A DNA stretch of 64,000 bases from positions 2,095-66,094 of the forward strand of contig JAZSKY010000071.1 in assembly GCA_045535095.1 (NCBI GenBank), given 5' to 3'. Within the stretch, counting starts at the first letter, position 1. Every line of letters starts with the position of its first letter. Below, piece by piece: positions 2,466 to 21,990 of this stretch. The stretch is from Eubacteriales bacterium. GTDB lineage: Bacteria > Bacillota > Clostridia > Oscillospirales > CAG-272. The notes beneath the pieces are model-generated. The model had not been told where the DNA came from, did no database searches, and saw only the letters and a program-made list of their open reading frames with translations. The position numbers and the translations under genes are program-made.

Positions 2466-2557
2466 CTCTCATCTCTTAGGAATTGGCACCTTCCCGAAAA
2501 GGTCTCGGCAGGTTGCCGTAGGATCAACGGGCCTATCCCTCCCCTACTCTTGATGAT
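2466..2557 (-). promoter_or_regulatory. SAM-I (S-box) riboswitch aptamer
   Basis: The minus strand reads ATCATCAAGAGTAGGGGAGGGATAGGCCCGTTGATCCTACGGCAACC...GGTGCCAATTCCTAAGAGATGAGAG. This matches the S-box conserved cores and sits directly upstream of metK. Confidence 0.9.
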
Positions 2558-2633
2558 CTATTAGATTCAAGTAGAATTATAACACACAGAGTGTGCTATG
2601 TCAAGTATTTTGAAGCGGATTTTTTGATTTTTT

Positions 2634-3736: not shown

Positions 3737-3811
3737 TTTTCTTTCTCCTATATATAAAATATCGGAGAAAAGACAGTGCAATATTGCCGTAAATACGGGG
3801 AAATTAAAGTT

Positions 3812-3925
3812 CTATCTTTTCTCATCCGGCCTTTACCGTCGGTGCAGGAATTTCACCTGCTCGGCGCTTTTTAAGCGTTTGCGGACTCTACCGCCGGTGT
3901 GGAATTTCACCAATCTCTCAAAGTA
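3812..3925 (-). promoter_or_regulatory. FMN riboswitch (RFN element)
   Basis: The minus strand reads GGTGAAATTCCACACCGGCGGTAGAGTCCGC...CAGGTGAAATTCCTGCACCGACGGTAAAGGCCGGATGAGAAAAG. Both halves of the RFN consensus are present. Confidence 0.88.
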
Positions 3926-3935
3926 TAGTATATAA

Positions 3936-5244: not shown

Positions 5245-7317
5245 TTATGCTTTTTTCTTTATGATCTCTTCCTGGATGCTTCTGGGCACTTCTGCGAAGT
5301 GGCTGGGCTCCATGGAATAGTTTCCGCGTCCCTGAGTAGAGGAACGAAGGTCGGTAGCATATCCGAACATCGTCGAAAGCGGAACTTCTGCGATGATTTC
5401 GGCAGTTCCCTTGTTGTCTTCCATGGAAACAACGTTTCCGCGGCGAGACGAGAAGCCACCGATTACGTTACCCATGTATTCCGAAGGAACAACGGTAACA
5501 ACCTTCATAATAGGCTCGGTAAGAACGGGGTCGGCCTTTCTCATAGCTTCCTTGAATGCCATAGATCCGGCAATCTTGAACGCCATTTCCGAAGAGTCAA
5601 CCTCGTGGTAAGAACCATCGTAAAGGGTGATCTTGATGTCAACAGTGTTATATCCTGCAACGACACCGGTGAGCATTGCGTCTCTGATACCTGCGTCAAC
5701 TGCGGATATATATTCCTTGGGTACTACGCCACCGACGATAGCGTCGATAAACTCGTATCCCTTGCCGGGCTCGTTAGGCTCGAGCTTGATCTTAACGTGA
5801 CCGTACTGACCCTTACCACCGGACTGTCTGACGAACTTACCTTCTGCCTCAACTGCCTTACGAGCGGTTTCCTTGTAGGATACCTGAGGCTTACCGATGT
5901 TAGCTTCTACCTTAAATTCTCTGAGAAGTCTGTCAACGATAACTTCGAGGTGGAGCTCACCCATTCCTGCGATAATAGTCTGACCGGTCTCCTCGTCAGT
6001 ATAGGTTCTAAAGGTCGGGTCTTCTTCTGCAAGCTTTGCAAGTGCGAGACCGATCTTCTCCTGTCCTGCCTTGGTCTTAGGCTCGATAGCAACCTTAATA
6101 ACGGGTTCCGGGAACTCCATCGACTCGAGGATTACCTCGTCAGCGCCCTCAAGGCAGAGGGTATCACCGGTCGTGGTGTTCTTAAGACCTACTACTGCGG
6201 CGATATCGCCTGCGTAGCAAACGTTTATATCCTTTCTGTCGTAAGCGTGCATCTGGAGAATTCTTCCCATACGCTCGCGCTGTTTCTTCGAGGAGTTGTA
6301 AACGGTGGTTCCTACCGGAATCGTACCCGAAAATACTCTGAAGAAGCAGAGTTTTCCAACATAGGGGTCGGTCATGATCTTGAACGCGAGAGCCGAGAAG
6401 GGTGCGTTATCGTCCGAAGGACGTTCAACCTCTTCACCGTCTTCGTTTATACCGCGGATAGCGGGAACGTCGAGAGGCGAGGGCATGAAGTCAACGATAG
6501 CGTCAAGAAGCTTCTGTACTCCCTTGTTCTTATAAGAGGTTCCGCAAACTACGGGTACAAGCTGGTTAGCTATAGTAGCCTTACGGAGTGCTGCCTTAAG
6601 CTCGTCAACCGTGATTTCCTCGTCCATAAGGAACTTCTCCATCAGGTCGTCGTCTGTTGCAGCGATGGCCTCTACCATCTTCTGTCTGTATTCTTCTGCG
6701 ATTTCTACCATATCAGCGGGAATCGGCTCAACTCTCATGTCTTTTCCGAGGTCATCGTAATAAACGTCTGCCTCCATGTTCATAAGGTCAACGATTCCTC
6801 TGAAGGTATCTTCTGCTCCGATGGGGAGCTGGATCGGTACCGGGTTCGTCTTAAGTCTGTCAACGAGCATTCCTACAACGCGGTAGAAATCGGCACCCAT
6901 TATATCCATTTTGTTGATGTAACACATTCTCGGAACGCGATACTTATCAGCCTGTCTCCAAACGGTTTCAGACTGAGGCTCAACTCCGCCCTTTGCGCAA
7001 AGAACGGTAACTGCTCCGTCAAGAACTCTGAGCGAACGCTCAACCTCTACGGTAAAGTCAACGTGTCCGGGGGTGTCAATGATGTTGACACGGCGGCCCT
7101 TCCAGAAACAGGTGGTTGCAGCCGAAGTAATGGTAATACCCCTTTCCTTCTCCTGCTCCATCCAGTCCATGGTTGCCGTACCCTCGTGGGTATCACCGAT
7201 CTTGTGATTTACACCGGTATAGTAGAGTATTCTTTCGGTCGTAGTCGTCTTTCCGGCGTCGATATGAGCCATGATTCCGATGTTACGAGTATTCTCAAGT
7301 GAATATTCTCTTGGCAT
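5245..7317 (-). CDS. fusA: Elongation factor G
   Basis: 690 aa. [24 protein letters not shown], with DTPGHVDF and NKMD motifs. Confidence 0.98.
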
Positions 7318-16886: not shown

Positions 16887-18377
16887 GTGAAAAGACAAGA
16901 AAACAGAGGCTCTTACGGACCTCTTGGCGTTATAACCATCGCGGCGGTGCTTCTTATAGCACTCGGCGTCAATCTCCTTTTCGGACTCCTGCCCGACAGC
17001 ATTTTAAGATCGGATATATCGACAGAGCGCCTTACCCACGTCTCAGACGAGGCAAAGGACTATCTTGCGAAAAACCTCAGCGGCGAGATAGAGATTTATC
17101 TCGTTGCCGAGTCGGGAATGGAGGATATTTCGCTTTCCGAATTTCTTTCCCGTCTTTCCTCGCTCGACGAGAGAATGACGTTTTCTGCGGTAGATCCCAC
17201 CGTCAAAAGATCGTTCCTTGAAAATCTTACGGGCGAGTCTCCCGACGAGATAGTGAACAACACGCTTATCGTACGCGGAGAAAAATACGGCTCTGTAAAG
17301 ACTGTCGATCCCTATACCCTTTACAGCTACGAGGTATTTCTTATCGACGCAGACCTTGGAGAATACGTCTCCTACGGAGAATATCCGTACAGAGAGTTTA
17401 CCTCGGTTTACGCATCGCTCAGCGAGTATTTCAGCAGCGGATACGCCTACTACGAGCAGCGCTTCAACGGTGAGACCGCGATAATTTCGGCTATCGACTA
17501 CGTCCTTACCGATCCCGCAAAGCTGCCCAAGATCTATTTCACCGCGCTTCACGGAGAAATACCGACAAGCGAGTCGCTTGCCGAGCAGCTTGAGCTTTCA
17601 AATCTCCCGTCCGAGTCGCTGAACATCGCTGATACTATTCCGAGTGACGCGGGAGTTATCGTAATGAATTCGCCCTCAAACGATATTACAGAGACAGAGG
17701 CTTCTCTTCTTTCCTCCTATCTCGCGCTCGGCGGAAAGCTTTTCGTTATAACCGACTACACGAAGGTGGCATCTCTTGAAAATCTTGCCAAGGTGCTTGA
17801 GACCTACGGTCTTTCGGCGCGCTCCGGCGAGCTTTTTGAGACAAAATCCGAATATCATCTGTCGGGATATCAGAATTCTATTCTCCCCGATTTTTCCCCT
17901 CTTGCCGCGCTTTACGGCGTTGACAACTACTATTTCCTCGCGCGCTCGGCTCACTCTCTCGGAGTCACCGAGACCCAAGGAGTAACTCACACTCATCTTC
18001 TGAAAACGACAGAGAGCGCGTACTACGAGTTCATAGAAAACGGGGAGACGAAAAAGAGCGAGCCATCGCAGTTTTCTATTGCCATCTCCGCCATTAAAAA
18101 CGGAGGCGGAGAGGTAGTATGGTTTGCATCTCCCTATATGCTCACAAAGGAGGATTCCGACCTTGTGGGCGGCGGAAACTATATCCATTTCACGGCAATT
18201 CTCTCCTCTCTCTGCGACAAGCAGAGCGCAAGCTTCGCAACGAGAGCGATGGAGGAGGACACCCTCACGATAAGCGCAGGTCAGGCAGGCTTCTGGGCGG
18301 TAATTATCATCGCGGTAATTCCTGCCGCGGTAATTACTGCAGGTACTGTCAGAGTTATGCGCAGAAAGAGGTCGTGA
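16887..18377 (+). CDS. GldG-like ABC-transporter auxiliary protein (ABC_transp_aux family)
   Basis: GTG start after AAGGAGGGG. 496 aa with N- and C-terminal TM anchors around a large exported domain. It is the third gene of the ATPase/permease/aux triad. Confidence 0.65.
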   Translation: MKRQENRGSYGPLGVITIAAVLLIALGVNLLFGLLPDSILRSDISTERLTHVSDEAKDYLAKNLSGEIEIYLVAESGMEDISLSEFLSRLSSLDERMTFSAVDPTVKRSFLENLTGESPDEIVNNTLIVRGEKYGSVKTVDPYTLYSYEVFLIDADLGEYVSYGEYPYREFTSVYASLSEYFSSGYAYYEQRFNGETAIISAIDYVLTDPAKLPKIYFTALHGEIPTSESLAEQLELSNLPSESLNIADTIPSDAGVIVMNSPSNDITETEASLLSSYLALGGKLFVITDYTKVASLENLAKVLETYGLSARSGELFETKSEYHLSGYQNSILPDFSPLAALYGVDNYYFLARSAHSLGVTETQGVTHTHLLKTTESAYYEFIENGETKKSEPSQFSIAISAIKNGGGEVVWFASPYMLTKEDSDLVGGGNYIHFTAILSSLCDKQSASFATRAMEEDTLTISAGQAGFWAVIIIAVIPAAVITAGTVRVMRRKRS

Positions 18378-18378
18378 T

Positions 18379-19302
18379 TTGAAGAAGCTACGAACCCTTT
18401 GCGTCCTTATTATACTCTGCTTTATAATTTTCGGCGCGTACGTTATCATTCCCCGTCTTTCAGACAAGGGCGACGGCAGTGCCGAAAAGGACGCATATCT
18501 TTACGTTGACCAGAACGACGTCTCACACATCACCGCATTTTCATTTGTCGGCGGTGAGAGCGAGCTTTCCTTCAAAAAGGAAAACGGCGTCTGGGTATAT
18601 CAGAAAAACAAAACTCTCCCGATAAACGCGGTCATTCTGGAGTCTGCGCTTGACAGTCTTGACGTGATCCTTGCAACGAAGATAGTCAGCGAAAGCGGCG
18701 ACGACCTCGCGCAGTACGGACTTGAAAGTCCGCTTTATACTCTCACTATCGAGACCTCTCACGGCAAAAAGTGCTATCTCTTCGGCGATCTTATCGAGTC
18801 CAAAGGACTTCGCTATATGATGGAGGAGGACGCACACACGGTATATCTTACCGAGGACGATATCGTTGAGGCGTTTTCGCTTGAGGTGTCCGACTGCCTT
18901 GCGTCCGACACGCTGACTCTCCCTGAAAAAGAGGACGTTGCATTTGTGACAACAAAATGCGGCGAGTTCTCGCGCACCGAAAGGGGCGAGGAAAACGTCG
19001 CTCTGACAGACGCGCTCTCTTCCCTTTCGCTTGAAAGATGGGTAGATTTCGGATCGGACAAGTTCGATATTTTCGGACTTGCAGACGACGAATATATACT
19101 CGTTACCGTCGAGTCAAGCGACGGCAATATCACGAAAATCAGATTCGGACTCGGCGAGACCGAGGAGTTCATATACGCGCTCGTTGAAAACGAAAGCGGC
19201 GTATTTTCCGAGATGATATATCTTATAGAGTCCGAAAACAAGGACTGTTTAAACTCACACCTTCGCGCCGCTCTTGAGTCGCGCGGGACTATCGGAGAAT
19301 AG
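18379..19302 (+). CDS. DUF4340-like exported protein
   Basis: TTG start 1 nt after the preceding TGA. 307 aa with an N-terminal TM. A gene of this type usually follows GldG-like genes. Confidence 0.55.
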   Translation: MKKLRTLCVLIILCFIIFGAYVIIPRLSDKGDGSAEKDAYLYVDQNDVSHITAFSFVGGESELSFKKENGVWVYQKNKTLPINAVILESALDSLDVILATKIVSESGDDLAQYGLESPLYTLTIETSHGKKCYLFGDLIESKGLRYMMEEDAHTVYLTEDDIVEAFSLEVSDCLASDTLTLPEKEDVAFVTTKCGEFSRTERGEENVALTDALSSLSLERWVDFGSDKFDIFGLADDEYILVTVESSDGNITKIRFGLGETEEFIYALVENESGVFSEMIYLIESENKDCLNSHLRAALESRGTIGE

Positions 19303-20634: not shown

Positions 20635-20640
20635 ACAAAA

Positions 20641-21041
20641 AAACTCCCCTCGCTTAGCGTGATGTCCTTAACGGACATCACGCATCGATATAAATCCCTT
20701 ACGGGATTTTCGATATACGCCTTCGGCGTTCGATATGTGCTGCGCACTCGATATGTTTGCTGCGCAAACGAGGGATTTATATCATATCGAATTGGAGCGA
20801 AGCGACAATATATCGAGTTCGAGCAAAGCGAGAACATATCGAGTCAACGAAGTTGACATATCGACGTAAAGAAAAACAAGAGCAAGAATATAAGGTTTTC
20901 TCCTTGTACTCTTGCTCTATTTCTATCGTTATAAGGGTTTGGGCTTAGCTATTCTGCATTTGTCAGTACAAATGCGATGCTCGCACTTAACGGCGGTTTT
21001 CAAATTCTCCGTTAAGGACATCGCGCCAAAGCGAGGGGAGT
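20641..21041. repeat. Nested palindromic repeat element with about 33-nt terminal inverted repeats and a 4+4 array of TCGATAT/ATATCGA heptamers
   Basis: Left arm ACTCCCCTCGCTTAGCGTGATGTCCTTAACGGA (20643-20675). The right arm (21008-21041) has reverse complement ACTCCCCTCGCTTTGGCGCGATGTCCTTAACGGA. TCGATAT occurs at 20685, 20710, 20730 and 20748. ATATCGA occurs at 20784, 20810, 20836 and 20858. Every spacer is a mini-hairpin. Confidence 0.8.
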
Positions 21042-21048
21042 ATCTTTT

Positions 21049-21990
21049 TTAAAGTCCGAAAAGGGTGAGTATTATCGGAATCGTTGCTATCGAGATAGCG
21101 TGTGAAATGAGCGCCATTCCTGCCGCTACCGAGGTATCCTTTCCGTATGCCGCAGGGACAACAACCGTATTGAGTCCGAGGGGCATAGCCTCGGCGCAAA
21201 GCATACAGATAAAATAGTACTCGGGAATATCGAGAGACAAGAGTTTTGTAACTGCCAGATATACGCCGCCGAAGGCAAGGGGCAAAACAACGAGTCGCAC
21301 GATCGAAATGAAGTAAATGCTCTTTATTTTAAGCACCTTTTTGACGTCCATATTTGCAAAGGTCATACCGGTAATTATCATCGCAAGAGGGGACATACAG
21401 CTTCCGCAGGTATTTACCGCGCTGACTATGAAATCGGGGAGTCTGAGTCCCGAAATTCCGATAAGAGCGCCGATAAGAAGGGCTATGAACATAGGGTTGA
21501 CAAGCGCCTTTATTTTATCCTTAAAGCCTCCGTCCTCCCTGCCCATCAGCAGAGCGGGCACTCCCCAGACGTATATGAAGGTCCAAAGCGGCAGAGTGAA
21601 GATGATATAGTACATCTCATACTGCGGAAAAAGTGCGGTGACTATCGGGATTCCCATAAATCCGAAGTTCGCAAAGGCGAGTCCGTAGGTGTATATCTTC
21701 TGTATGTATTTATCGCGGCTCGCTATTTTCGCGCAAAGCATCGCGATAAATATTCCGATTACCGTAATTACGGTAGAAAAAAGGAGTATTCTCCACGCCG
21801 CGCCCAGCTTTTCGGGGGTGAAGTTCGTAATGAAGGTACCCATAACGAGGGCGGGAATGAAGATTGTGCTTTCGAGCTTCGAGAGAACTCCCGGCGCCTC
21901 AGGCCCTACCGCCTTGAATTTCGATACCGCAAATCCTATGATAATAAACAGCGCAAGCACTGCCATTTGCTTTAGTGATATAATTAGCAT
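21049..21990 (-). CDS. AEC (auxin efflux carrier) family permease
   Basis: 313 aa, about 10 TM segments, with an AEC-like N-terminus MLIISLKQMAVLALFIIIGFAVSK. Confidence 0.75.
   Translation of the reverse strand: MLIISLKQMAVLALFIIIGFAVSKFKAVGPEAPGVLSKLESTIFIPALVMGTFITNFTPEKLGAAWRILLFSTVITVIGIFIAMLCAKIASRDKYIQKIYTYGLAFANFGFMGIPIVTALFPQYEMYYIIFTLPLWTFIYVWGVPALLMGREDGGFKDKIKALVNPMFIALLIGALIGISGLRLPDFIVSAVNTCGSCMSPLAMIITGMTFANMDVKKVLKIKSIYFISIVRLVVLPLAFGGVYLAVTKLLSLDIPEYYFICMLCAEAMPLGLNTVVVPAAYGKDTSVAAGMALISHAISIATIPIILTLFGL

Follow-up and report, generated by a model that had tools for sequence, protein, structure and literature searches.

A gene-less heptamer-hairpin repeat of gut Clostridia that probably sits in the loop of a bidirectional terminator

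The 64,000-nt stretch of contig JAZSKY010000071.1 analyzed here (hereafter the window) holds, in the intergenic gap between the stop codons of two convergent genes, MATE (stop codon 20632-20634) and AEC (21049-21051), an element built of repeated heptamers and hairpins (Table 1). TCGATAT starts at 20685, 20710, 20730 and 20748 (spacings of 25, 20 and 18 nt), and ATATCGA at 20784, 20810, 20836 and 20858 (26, 26 and 22 nt). All six heptamer pairs that lie 8-30 nt apart in the window fall within the element, against 0.05 expected, an excess of about 120-fold over chance, and each of the seven spacers between heptamers is a hairpin. Arms at 20643-20675 and 21008-21041 pair with each other and are bordered by an A-run on the left and a T-run on the right. 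The preliminary description of this DNA, made from the letters alone, had reported the four-plus-four array, the hairpins in the spacers and the inverted arms of roughly 33 nt with their A- and T-runs, all of which held; two of the three further hairpins that it listed (20657-20683 and 20879-20918) are present, and the third lies at 20956-20975 instead of 20955-20974.

We call the strand that starts with TCGATAT the element strand; in the window it is the minus strand, which reads (T)TTG, three units of TCGATAT plus hairpin, TCGATAT, GATATAAATCCC, a hairpin, two units of ATATCGA plus hairpin, ATATCGA, AAATCCC-loop-GGGATTT and ATATCGA. Folded as RNA, the 421 nt from 20636 to 21056 gave z = -12.1 on the plus and -12.0 on the minus strand, with none of 100 shuffles as good, and folded as DNA the core (20682-20867) gave z = -5.6 and -6.5 on the two strands. 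The minimum-energy DNA structure of the core is, on both strands, a ladder in which heptamers pair with heptamers, in agreement with the long branched stem that had been proposed from the sequence, and the RNAalifold consensus fold of the family described below likewise pairs heptamers 1-8, 2-7, 3-6 and 4-5. Because no linker separates the hairpins from the heptamers, the folded strand runs through one perfect four-way junction after another, with 7-bp rungs between them. The G.U and A.C appositions on the rungs (5 versus 9) revealed no strand preference.

The element is a member of a large family of repeats. We scanned a single genome for each GTDB species with the anchor AAATCCC-N3-7-GGGATTTATATCGA, which was derived from two viral-contig homologs (L024 and L046, loci being cited here by our labels; ATATCGA-AAATCCC-loop-GGGATTT-ATATCGA). 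At least 119 loci matched, nearly all of them in gut or rumen metagenome-assembled genomes (MAGs) of Oscillospiraceae, Faecousia, Acutalibacteraceae and other or unclassified Clostridia; among the matches listed, at least 11 loci lie in one Faecousia MAG and at least six in another. After removal of duplicates 124 elements were analyzed, 49 of which follow the canonical four-plus-four plan exactly. Elements of the TCGATAT class are essentially chromosomal, and neither the PLSDB plasmids nor the INPHARED phages gave a BLAST match to the element. Exact look-up of both flanking proteins, MATE and AEC, found neither on record. On viral contigs, a first scan with three TCGATAT returned mostly chance matches, the only real loci being L024 and L046; in IMG/VR the class was seen on just four contigs, which are two duplicate pairs (L024/L122 and L046/L121).

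Within the family the heptamers are near-invariant, and the hairpin stems vary among copies yet remain paired. Over 412 distinct spacers, 87% and 91% of symmetric positions are Watson-Crick pairs, as against 28% in shuffled spacers (maximum 31.5% in 200 shuffles), and RNAalifold found many compensatory (double-sided) pair changes. This pairing was measured per spacer with the shuffle control; block-wise RNAalifold on a MAFFT alignment failed for four of the seven spacers owing to misaligned loops. Covariation, which the preliminary description had named as a check, is thus evident, and the hairpins of the family are under selection. In addition, the 5' arm of hairpin 1 together with part of its heptamer is complementary to the center of the element (13 of 13 nt in the window). 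This complementarity recurs across heptamer classes with covarying sequence (AAATCCC, AAATTCC and CCGTTCC), and was found in 79 rows versus 17 (maximum 29) in cross-locus controls. The window copy has the plan by which we define a Gut-1-like superfamily (Gut-1 is treated below): a forward half-array, a center complementary to the 5' arm of hairpin 1 and an inverted half-array with the complementary heptamer.

Copies are mosaics, in that those of one genome draw on shared hairpin types in differing order; changes include a deletion between two AAATCCC repeats (L145), extra units and small elements inside a hairpin (L046, L123 and L218). The short form of the element is the array alone. In the long form (~330-370 bp), represented by the window copy, the array is joined by an end hairpin, a terminator-like hairpin that has A- and T-runs of its own, additional hairpins and terminal inverted repeats, the last being weaker in L193 and L127 than in the window. 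The end-hairpin module also occurs with compensatory changes in L123, L125, L127, L137, L193 and L228, and the last hairpin shows compensatory changes between the window and L164 (CTTAACGG/CCGTTAAG versus CTTAGC.GAG/CTCGCTAAG). Since the sequence of the internal terminator-like hairpin is kept in L164, L140 and L219, which lie in other gene contexts, this hairpin belongs to the element; it would stop transcripts from the AEC side ahead of the array. The right-hand body of the long form contains no open reading frame (ORF) and has no similarity to the four-helix-bundle gene discussed below.

Three smaller repeats were noticed in and around these modules. The pentamer GGACA/TGTCC recurs in long-form modules (window 20657-20683 and 21008-21027; ends and internal hairpins of L127, L193 and L228), for example as GTGTCC-TTAAG-GGACAC, AAAAGGACATAG...CTATGTCCTTTT and CTGTGTCCACAG, and might serve the long form alone as a further recognition motif. 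A GC-rich insert of ~110 nt (TGCGGTGCCCGG...CGCTCC) breaks arrays at two different positions (L046, ~5495-5615, and the array center of L123), which suggests another small element targeting array hairpins. Another small palindromic repeat, roughly GGCTCCCCT..AGGGGAGC-TGTCAGCGAAGCTGACTGAGGGG, occurs at L024 5077-5125, in L218 and in L234 upstream, and in L218 it sits inside hairpin 2 of the array.

In 91 of 113 cases, the AAATCCC end of the array lies 0-60 nt from the stop codon of the gene reading into it, and the other end usually abuts the T-run of a bidirectional terminator. Where the neighboring genes are co-directional, 40 copies are oriented along transcription and 14 against it; six divergent copies are antisense as well. 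The full-length copy L164, which lies in a different gene context, is 85% identical to the window over 20654-21022, the homology beginning at 20654-20656. It is bracketed by a split terminator (AAAAAACGACAAG...CTTGTCGTTTTTTT), the window counterpart of which is AAAAAAACTCCCCTCGCTT...AAGCGAGGGGAG-T-run, and the same layout with unrelated stems is found in L127 and L193 and, less clean, in L187 and L228. Flank complementarity of split-terminator copies extends over 12, 13, 15 and 22 nt, whereas 300 cross-locus controls reached a maximum of 12. Moreover, an empty site exists for L193. Two loci of the same species, L461 and L462 (ABC-transporter protein 99% identical; flanks of 96-97% nucleotide identity), have an intact bidirectional terminator (...CAGAGCCAAATGC-ATC-GCATTTGGCTCTG...), and L193 has ~345 bp within the 3-nt ATC loop, with AT on each side of the insertion; relatives of this locus at 83% identity are likewise without the element. 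Mobility into a terminator loop has therefore been demonstrated in this homolog. A second polymorphic locus is pfs, where L241 carries an array between the stop codon and the terminator and L369-L373 (94% identical protein) carry none, while more distant contigs have other small palindromic repeats at that site. Palindromes of the GTAGGGA(C/A)...CCCTAC type take the place of the L241 array at this locus. The stem in the window is best read as a terminator split by insertion, which the terminator scan did not call because its "loop" measures 373 nt. These results bear out the early suggestion of a MITE-like mobile element (MITE, miniature inverted-repeat transposable element) in a bidirectional terminator; the empty site for which a search in relatives had been proposed was obtained for the homolog L193 and not for the window locus.

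Clustering of the ORFs flanking the loci (8-kb flanks) left a single recurrent neighbor family that is not explained by synteny, a protein of ~113-120 aa found at 15 of 124 loci in about seven independent contexts. It matches PF05635 (23S_rRNA_IVP, E = 3e-21) and TIGR02436 (four helix bundle protein), and its closest solved relative, 2RLD, is an uncharacterized protein with five chains in the entry. The gene reads away from the array, its ATG lying 17-19 nt beyond the last ATATCGA in the four ORFs measured and 9-24 nt beyond it in the rest, as judged from the upstream sequences. Working in the opposite direction, we aligned the 15 partner proteins, scanned metagenomes with them and obtained 80 loci at 46-76% identity, 61 of which have an inverted heptamer array directly upstream of the gene under an exact-7-mer rule; all eight inspected loci that failed this rule nonetheless have arrays, with degenerate heptamers. 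The heptamers read ATATCGA, ATATCGC, ATATCGT, ATATCTC, ATATCAT, ATATCAC, ATATAAC or CATCACT across protein clades, and all eight change in concert within one element. The same heptamer class is found in 96-100% of protein pairs that are at least 70% identical and in 0.4% of pairs that are 40-49% identical. Protein and array are thus linked, and the heptamer class changes as the protein diverges. Both half-arrays may lie upstream of the gene, the gene may lie between them (L433, L405 and L417), the halves may be swapped (L388 and L414), or the gene may be flanked by direct repeats of one half-array (L394), a variety of layouts that points to recombination at the arrays; in most loci the array keeps one and the same orientation towards the PF05635 gene. 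An array of binding sites had been among the candidates first put forward, and the change of heptamers with the adjacent protein favors its version as protein recognition sites, which may complement mobility.

As a separate observation, several units of array plus PF05635 gene are found directly downstream of the terminators of 5S rRNA or tRNA genes (L429, 240-540; L428, 582-1319; also the upstream regions of L436, L432, L421 and L416), an adjacency of interest because the PF05635 family is known from rRNA intervening sequences.

The element also has a relative in Rfam. A scan of the element at gathering thresholds gave no family match, and its linker reads UCGAUAU, not the GUGAAAU/GUGAUAU of Gut-1 (RF01706); below the threshold, Gut-1 scored 28.6 bits (E = 0.0026; 20683-20759, plus strand; gathering cut-off 50). 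The earlier statement that no recognized RNA family is present needs one correction, namely this sub-threshold kinship. Matches to miRNA, snoRNA and CRISPR (clustered regularly interspaced short palindromic repeats) direct-repeat families near E = 1 are noise. Gut-1 was published in 2010 by Weinberg et al. as a motif found in 'human gut only' and a likely candidate noncoding RNA with covariation, with no function given, no protein partner and no mobility (PMC2864571). Like the element, Gut-1 has three or four free-sequence hairpins, an invariant 7-nt linker and a longer first hairpin, and its source, like that of our family, is the gut metagenome; the window copy for its part has at least three variable-sequence hairpins separated by an invariant heptamer linker. 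In contrast to the window copy, the published motif has a different linker and consists of one half only. In the flanks of the published Stockholm alignment, for example BAAZ01000095.1, GUGAUAU units are followed by four AUAUCAC, with a center complementary to hairpin 1, and L262 has the same full plan with GTGAAAT and ATTTCAC. RF01706 scores over its gathering cut-off directly upstream of PF05635 genes in L428, L433 and L429 and, on the minus strand, downstream of the PF05635 gene in L417. To judge from these sequences, Gut-1 is the first half of sister elements that have the PF05635 partner in common. Our element is kin to Gut-1 and adds a new heptamer variant to this motif class, which is known but unexplained. 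No publication linking the motif with the protein emerged from literature searches for TCGATAT, Gut-1 and PF05635.

The loops of the hairpins differ between strands. On the strand that reads ATATCGA, compared with the opposite strand, cGNAg loops number 99 versus 4, cGNYAg 56 versus 0 and cGNRAg 44 versus 4; GCGAAGC occurs there in 32 spacers versus 1, and the stems have tandem G.A mismatches. In the window, the favored strand is minus for 20685-20783, where the loops read GTAA, GAA, GCA and GCA, each closed by C-G, and plus for 20784-20864, where they read GAA, AAA and GAA, with tandem G.A mismatches and one GCGAAGC mini-hairpin. Because the favored strand switches at the center, each strand consists of one favored half and one half of complements. 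The sequences d(GCGNAGC) and d(GCGNNAGC) form extraordinarily stable DNA mini-hairpins, the RNA counterparts of which are much weaker, and such DNA mini-hairpins occur in signals of single-stranded DNA, among them the G4 origin, ssiA (CCGAAGG) and N4 promoters (PMC13037366, PMC3201870). In our family, purines and pyrimidines are equally frequent at loop position 3 and triloops predominate, which fits the DNA stability rule, not the GNRA/UNCG rule of RNA. We infer that folded single-stranded DNA (ssDNA) is at least one of the forms under selection.

Taken together, these results make it likely that window positions 20656-21027 are a gene-less, long-form member of a repeat family that is mobile and mosaic in gut Clostridia, and that this copy occupies the loop of a MATE/AEC bidirectional terminator (stem 20644-20655/21029-21040), with heptamers that are most likely recognition sites of a PF05635 protein and with orphan arrays as non-autonomous copies. 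The conserved core (20685-20864) consists of two half-arrays in inverted orientation; each has four units, and every unit combines an invariant heptamer with a free-sequence hairpin. Once single-stranded, the core is predicted to fold into a four-rung ladder, in which each TCGATAT forms a 7-bp rung with an ATATCGA and the hairpins leave at four-way junctions; it might also take up an alternative conformation, since hairpin 1 has a 5' arm that could pair with the center instead. [quoted passage not shown] Full elements carry the PF05635 gene next to or inside the array, and orphan arrays may depend on, or be bound by, a protein whose gene lies at another genomic site. Insertion might proceed via ssDNA, with the terminator loop and the mini-hairpins of the element exposed. 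The consequence for the host is probably small, since a closed stem flanked by A- and T-runs would be formed anew and the element brings its own terminator-like hairpin, and the array would form the 3' tail of the MATE transcript. The inverted full architecture, the insertion into terminator loops and the PF05635 partner tracked by the heptamers are, to our knowledge, new.

It would be tempting to generalize this idea. PF05635 proteins and heptamer-hairpin arrays might together form a hitherto unrecognized two-part genetic element in which a small, non-enzymatic, pentameric protein reads a folded ssDNA ladder and promotes its copying or insertion into stable hairpin loops through host replication or repair; the targets would be terminator loops here and 23S rRNA helix loops in classical intervening sequences, and orphans such as the window copy would be non-autonomous progeny. 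We offer this generalization tentatively, as a possibility that could well turn out to be wrong.

Several points weigh against reading the window element as a mobile copy with sites for a PF05635 protein. No empty site was obtained for the MATE-AEC locus itself. The nearest MATE orthologs (83-87% identical) have one or two extra genes and an unrelated terminator there, or other neighbors altogether: in L242-L249 a 209-aa CBM9_2-domain gene lies between MATE and AEC, followed by an ordinary bidirectional terminator, L249 has an additional 155-aa gene in the interval, and window 20635-21048 contains the element in place of these genes. A candidate target-site duplication (AT/AT) was seen in L193 only, with nothing consistent in the window, L164 and L127. 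Neither a transposase nor a recombinase nor a nuclease is associated with the family in the 8-kb flanks of its loci, so host functions would have to do the chemistry, which is the weakest link of the argument. The 64-kb window holds no PF05635 gene of this kind and no second array, which makes its copy an orphan; PF05635 has no known catalytic activity, and heptamer class and protein could co-diverge through linkage alone, with no contact between them. The orientation bias given above leans toward co-transcription with the upstream gene, and the only PF05635 relative with a known role, Avd, is a pentamer that binds a specific structured RNA stem-loop (bioRxiv 10.1101/2023.10.23.563531). These last two points would be expected if the element were primarily a structured RNA, forming the 3' tail of an upstream gene (here MATE) or the leader of PF05635 and serving as a protein partner or sponge, a stabilizer of mRNA 3' ends or a termination insulator, with its spread being secondary. 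Such an RNA would also suit the strong RNA fold, the rating of Gut-1 as a likely RNA with covariation (Weinberg et al.; PMC2864571), the fixed orientation relative to the PF05635 gene and the internal hairpin with T-run that shields the array from antisense transcription. However, the mirror symmetry of the two halves extends to their loops, which is unexpected for an RNA made from one strand; GNYA loops equal GNRA loops in frequency and triloops prevail, as the stability rule for DNA predicts; 14 of 54 co-directional copies and the six divergent ones are antisense to their neighbors; in L417 the downstream half matches Gut-1 on its minus strand; and a promoter and terminator scan of the element found nothing exceeding shuffled expectation, with no conserved promoter or canonical terminator. 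We therefore regard a primarily RNA function as unlikely, if still a serious contender. Such a role and the roles proposed above need not exclude each other, and the structured noncoding RNA listed among the first candidates, which does turn out to be related to an Rfam candidate RNA, may complement mobility.

The heptamers might instead act in duplex DNA, as an operator array of eight double-stranded sites for the PF05635 protein or another regulator, used for autoregulation or, in the case of orphans, as regulon or chromosome-organizing sites. The inverted four-plus-four layout does resemble multi-site transposon ends and plasmid centromeres, the heptamer class tracks the protein clade, and arrays lie directly upstream of the gene. 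Yet successive heptamers lie 18 to 27 bp apart, a distance that differs inside single copies as well as from copy to copy, with no helical phasing, the spacers are under strong selection for hairpins with specific stable loops that duplex binding does not need, and orphan copies lie after stop codons or in terminators, not at promoters; we give this explanation little credence. That the element is nothing but an ordinary bidirectional terminator, however elaborate, or a palindrome that arose by chance, and has neither family nor mobility, is hardly credible at all. The outer stem with its A-run and T-run between convergent genes is what such a terminator would look like; against this stand the 119 or more homologous loci, the heptamer pairs at ~120 times chance, the L164 copy, the empty and filled sites of the L193 homolog and a loop of 373 nt that the scan left uncalled, and we rejected it on these grounds.

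MITEs and related short repeats are among the closest known parallels. The window copy has terminal inverted repeats (20656-20675 versus 21008-21027), the family has many copies in unrelated contexts, and a filled and an empty site are available for the homolog L193; an autonomous transposase-encoding relative was not found in the 8-kb flanks, where the PF05635 protein is the sole recurrent neighbor. Short, gene-less, multi-copy intergenic elements at the 3' ends of genes are familiar from Correia/CREE elements in Neisseria, BOX/RUP in pneumococcus, and REP (repetitive extragenic palindrome)/BIME and REPIN-RAYT in enterobacteria and Pseudomonas. MITEs and mosaic repeats share with the element its modular build, the terminal inverted repeats of the long form and presence/absence polymorphism, and the RAYT-REP system offers the parallel of a single-copy protein gene flanked by co-evolving repeats. 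The element differs from these in that its partner is a four-helix-bundle protein and not a DDE or HUH transposase, its target is a terminator hairpin loop, and it lacks both the GTAG-plus-palindrome unit and a consistent TA duplication. Whereas REP sequences conserve the palindrome, our element conserves a 7-nt linker and lets the palindromes vary; with a unit of heptamer plus variable palindrome and no HUH gene among the neighbors, assignment to REP/BIME-RAYT was rejected. The same genomes do contain a separate family of REP/REPIN-like palindromes, GTAGGGA(C/A)...CCCTAC, which frequently come in pairs as inverted doublets (L375, ~1925-2035; L369, ~1060-1190; L132, ~130-230; L160; L138; L222).

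The 23S rRNA intervening sequences of Leptospira, Coxiella and CPR bacteria share the PF05635 protein with this family, and in L433 and L405 the gene lies mid-stem between the half-arrays, as in such sequences. These too are long interrupted stems set in the loop of a pre-existing stable hairpin. Their host hairpins are rRNA helices, in contrast to the transcription terminators found here, and the window copy has no ORF; since the element lies between protein-coding genes and the window contains no rRNA, an intervening sequence of helix 25 or 45 was rejected, and the likeness is one of working principle only. Avd, of the same superfamily, likewise works with a structured nucleic acid encoded adjacently. 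In diversity-generating retroelements it is a pentameric, positively charged four-helix-bundle protein that binds a stem-loop in the Spacer RNA (bioRxiv 10.1101/2023.10.23.563531). Unlike these retroelements, our family has a repeated four-plus-four array with many orphan copies and no reverse transcriptase, template repeat or variable repeat beside the arrays, and assignment to them was dropped for want of a nearby reverse transcriptase. The attC sites of integrons, together with mini-hairpin signals for ssDNA initiation (ssiA, G4 origin), resemble the element in conserving structure over sequence, in their 7-nt inverted cores, in their position directly after stop codons and in stable cGNAg/cGNNAg DNA loops, including CCGAAGG as in ssiA. 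They differ in that their cores are others and two instead of eight; neighbors here are housekeeping genes, not cassettes, and no integrase or primase context was seen. An attC site was rejected on its core sequences (RYYYAAC/GTTRRRY) and its layout as a single bulged hairpin, with no integrase search aimed at IntI. A CRISPR array, with direct repeats of 23-47 nt and unique spacers about as long, and a plain intrinsic bidirectional terminator, with a GC-rich stem, a loop of 3-8 nt and a U-run, had both been dismissed in the preliminary description, rightly so: the repeats are 7 nt long, in both orientations and with palindromic spacers, and the outer stem and runs enclose a loop of 373 nt.

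Gut-1, which in 2010 was without function, host or partner, now has hosts (Oscillospiraceae and relatives), a full inverted architecture, evidence of mobility and a candidate protein partner. Conversely, the PF05635 protein gains a specific candidate ligand, the recognition code of which may be readable from the covariation of heptamer class and protein clade. If the element is indeed mobile and targets hairpin loops, it would give a hint as to how rRNA intervening sequences arise. The repeats are also common in gut MAGs, where they will confuse the annotation of small RNAs, terminators and CRISPR arrays and can break assemblies.

Table 1. Parts of the element and of the flanking stem in the window, from left to right.
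Feature	Positions	Strand	Composition	Remarks
Putative host terminator, left half	20637-20655		A-run 20637-20643 and stem arm CTCCCCTCGCTT 20644-20655	Pairs with 21029-21040; outside the L164 homology
Left terminal inverted repeat	20656-20675		AGCGTGATGTCCTTAACGGA	~18 of 20 positions complement 21008-21027 (counted from sequence)
End hairpin	20657-20683		GCGTGATGTCC-TTAAC-GGACATCACGC	Perfect 11-bp stem
First half-array	20685-20769		TCGATAT x4, each followed by a hairpin (20692-20709, 20717-20729, 20737-20747, 20755-20769)	Gut-1-like part
Center	20770-20783		GAGGGATTTATATC	Second partner for 20687-20699 (GATATAAATCCCT); 13 nt, 100% complementary
Second half-array	20784-20864		ATATCGA x4 with hairpins in between (20791-20809, 20817-20835, 20843-20857)	
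Internal terminator-like hairpin	20868-20918	-	Hairpin 20879-20918, then minus-strand T-run 20868-20878	
Right-hand body of long form	20919-21007		Conserved spacer CGTTATAAGGGTTTGGGC, hairpin 20956-20975, hairpin 20986-21016	Last hairpin overlaps the right repeat
Right terminal inverted repeat	21008-21027		TCCGTTAAGGACATCGCGCC	Pairs with the left repeat; L164 homology stops at 21022
Putative host terminator, right half	21029-21050		Stem arm AAGCGAGGGGAG 21029-21040 and T-run 21041-21050	T-run overlaps the AEC stop codon

A candidate extended -10 box in the center of the element (TGATATAAA, minus strand) was dropped, the equivalent sequence not being conserved in the GTGAAAT class. Elsewhere in the window and unrelated to the element, an FMN riboswitch (3810-3928, minus strand, 90.1 bits) and a SAM-I riboswitch (2466-2559, minus strand, 66 bits) score over their Rfam gathering scores. 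Finally, the 9-mer GCGGTAATT occurs three times with a 15-nt period at 18297-18335 (plus strand), at the junction of the ORFs 16887-18377 and 18379-19302, and may be a short in-frame tandem repeat.

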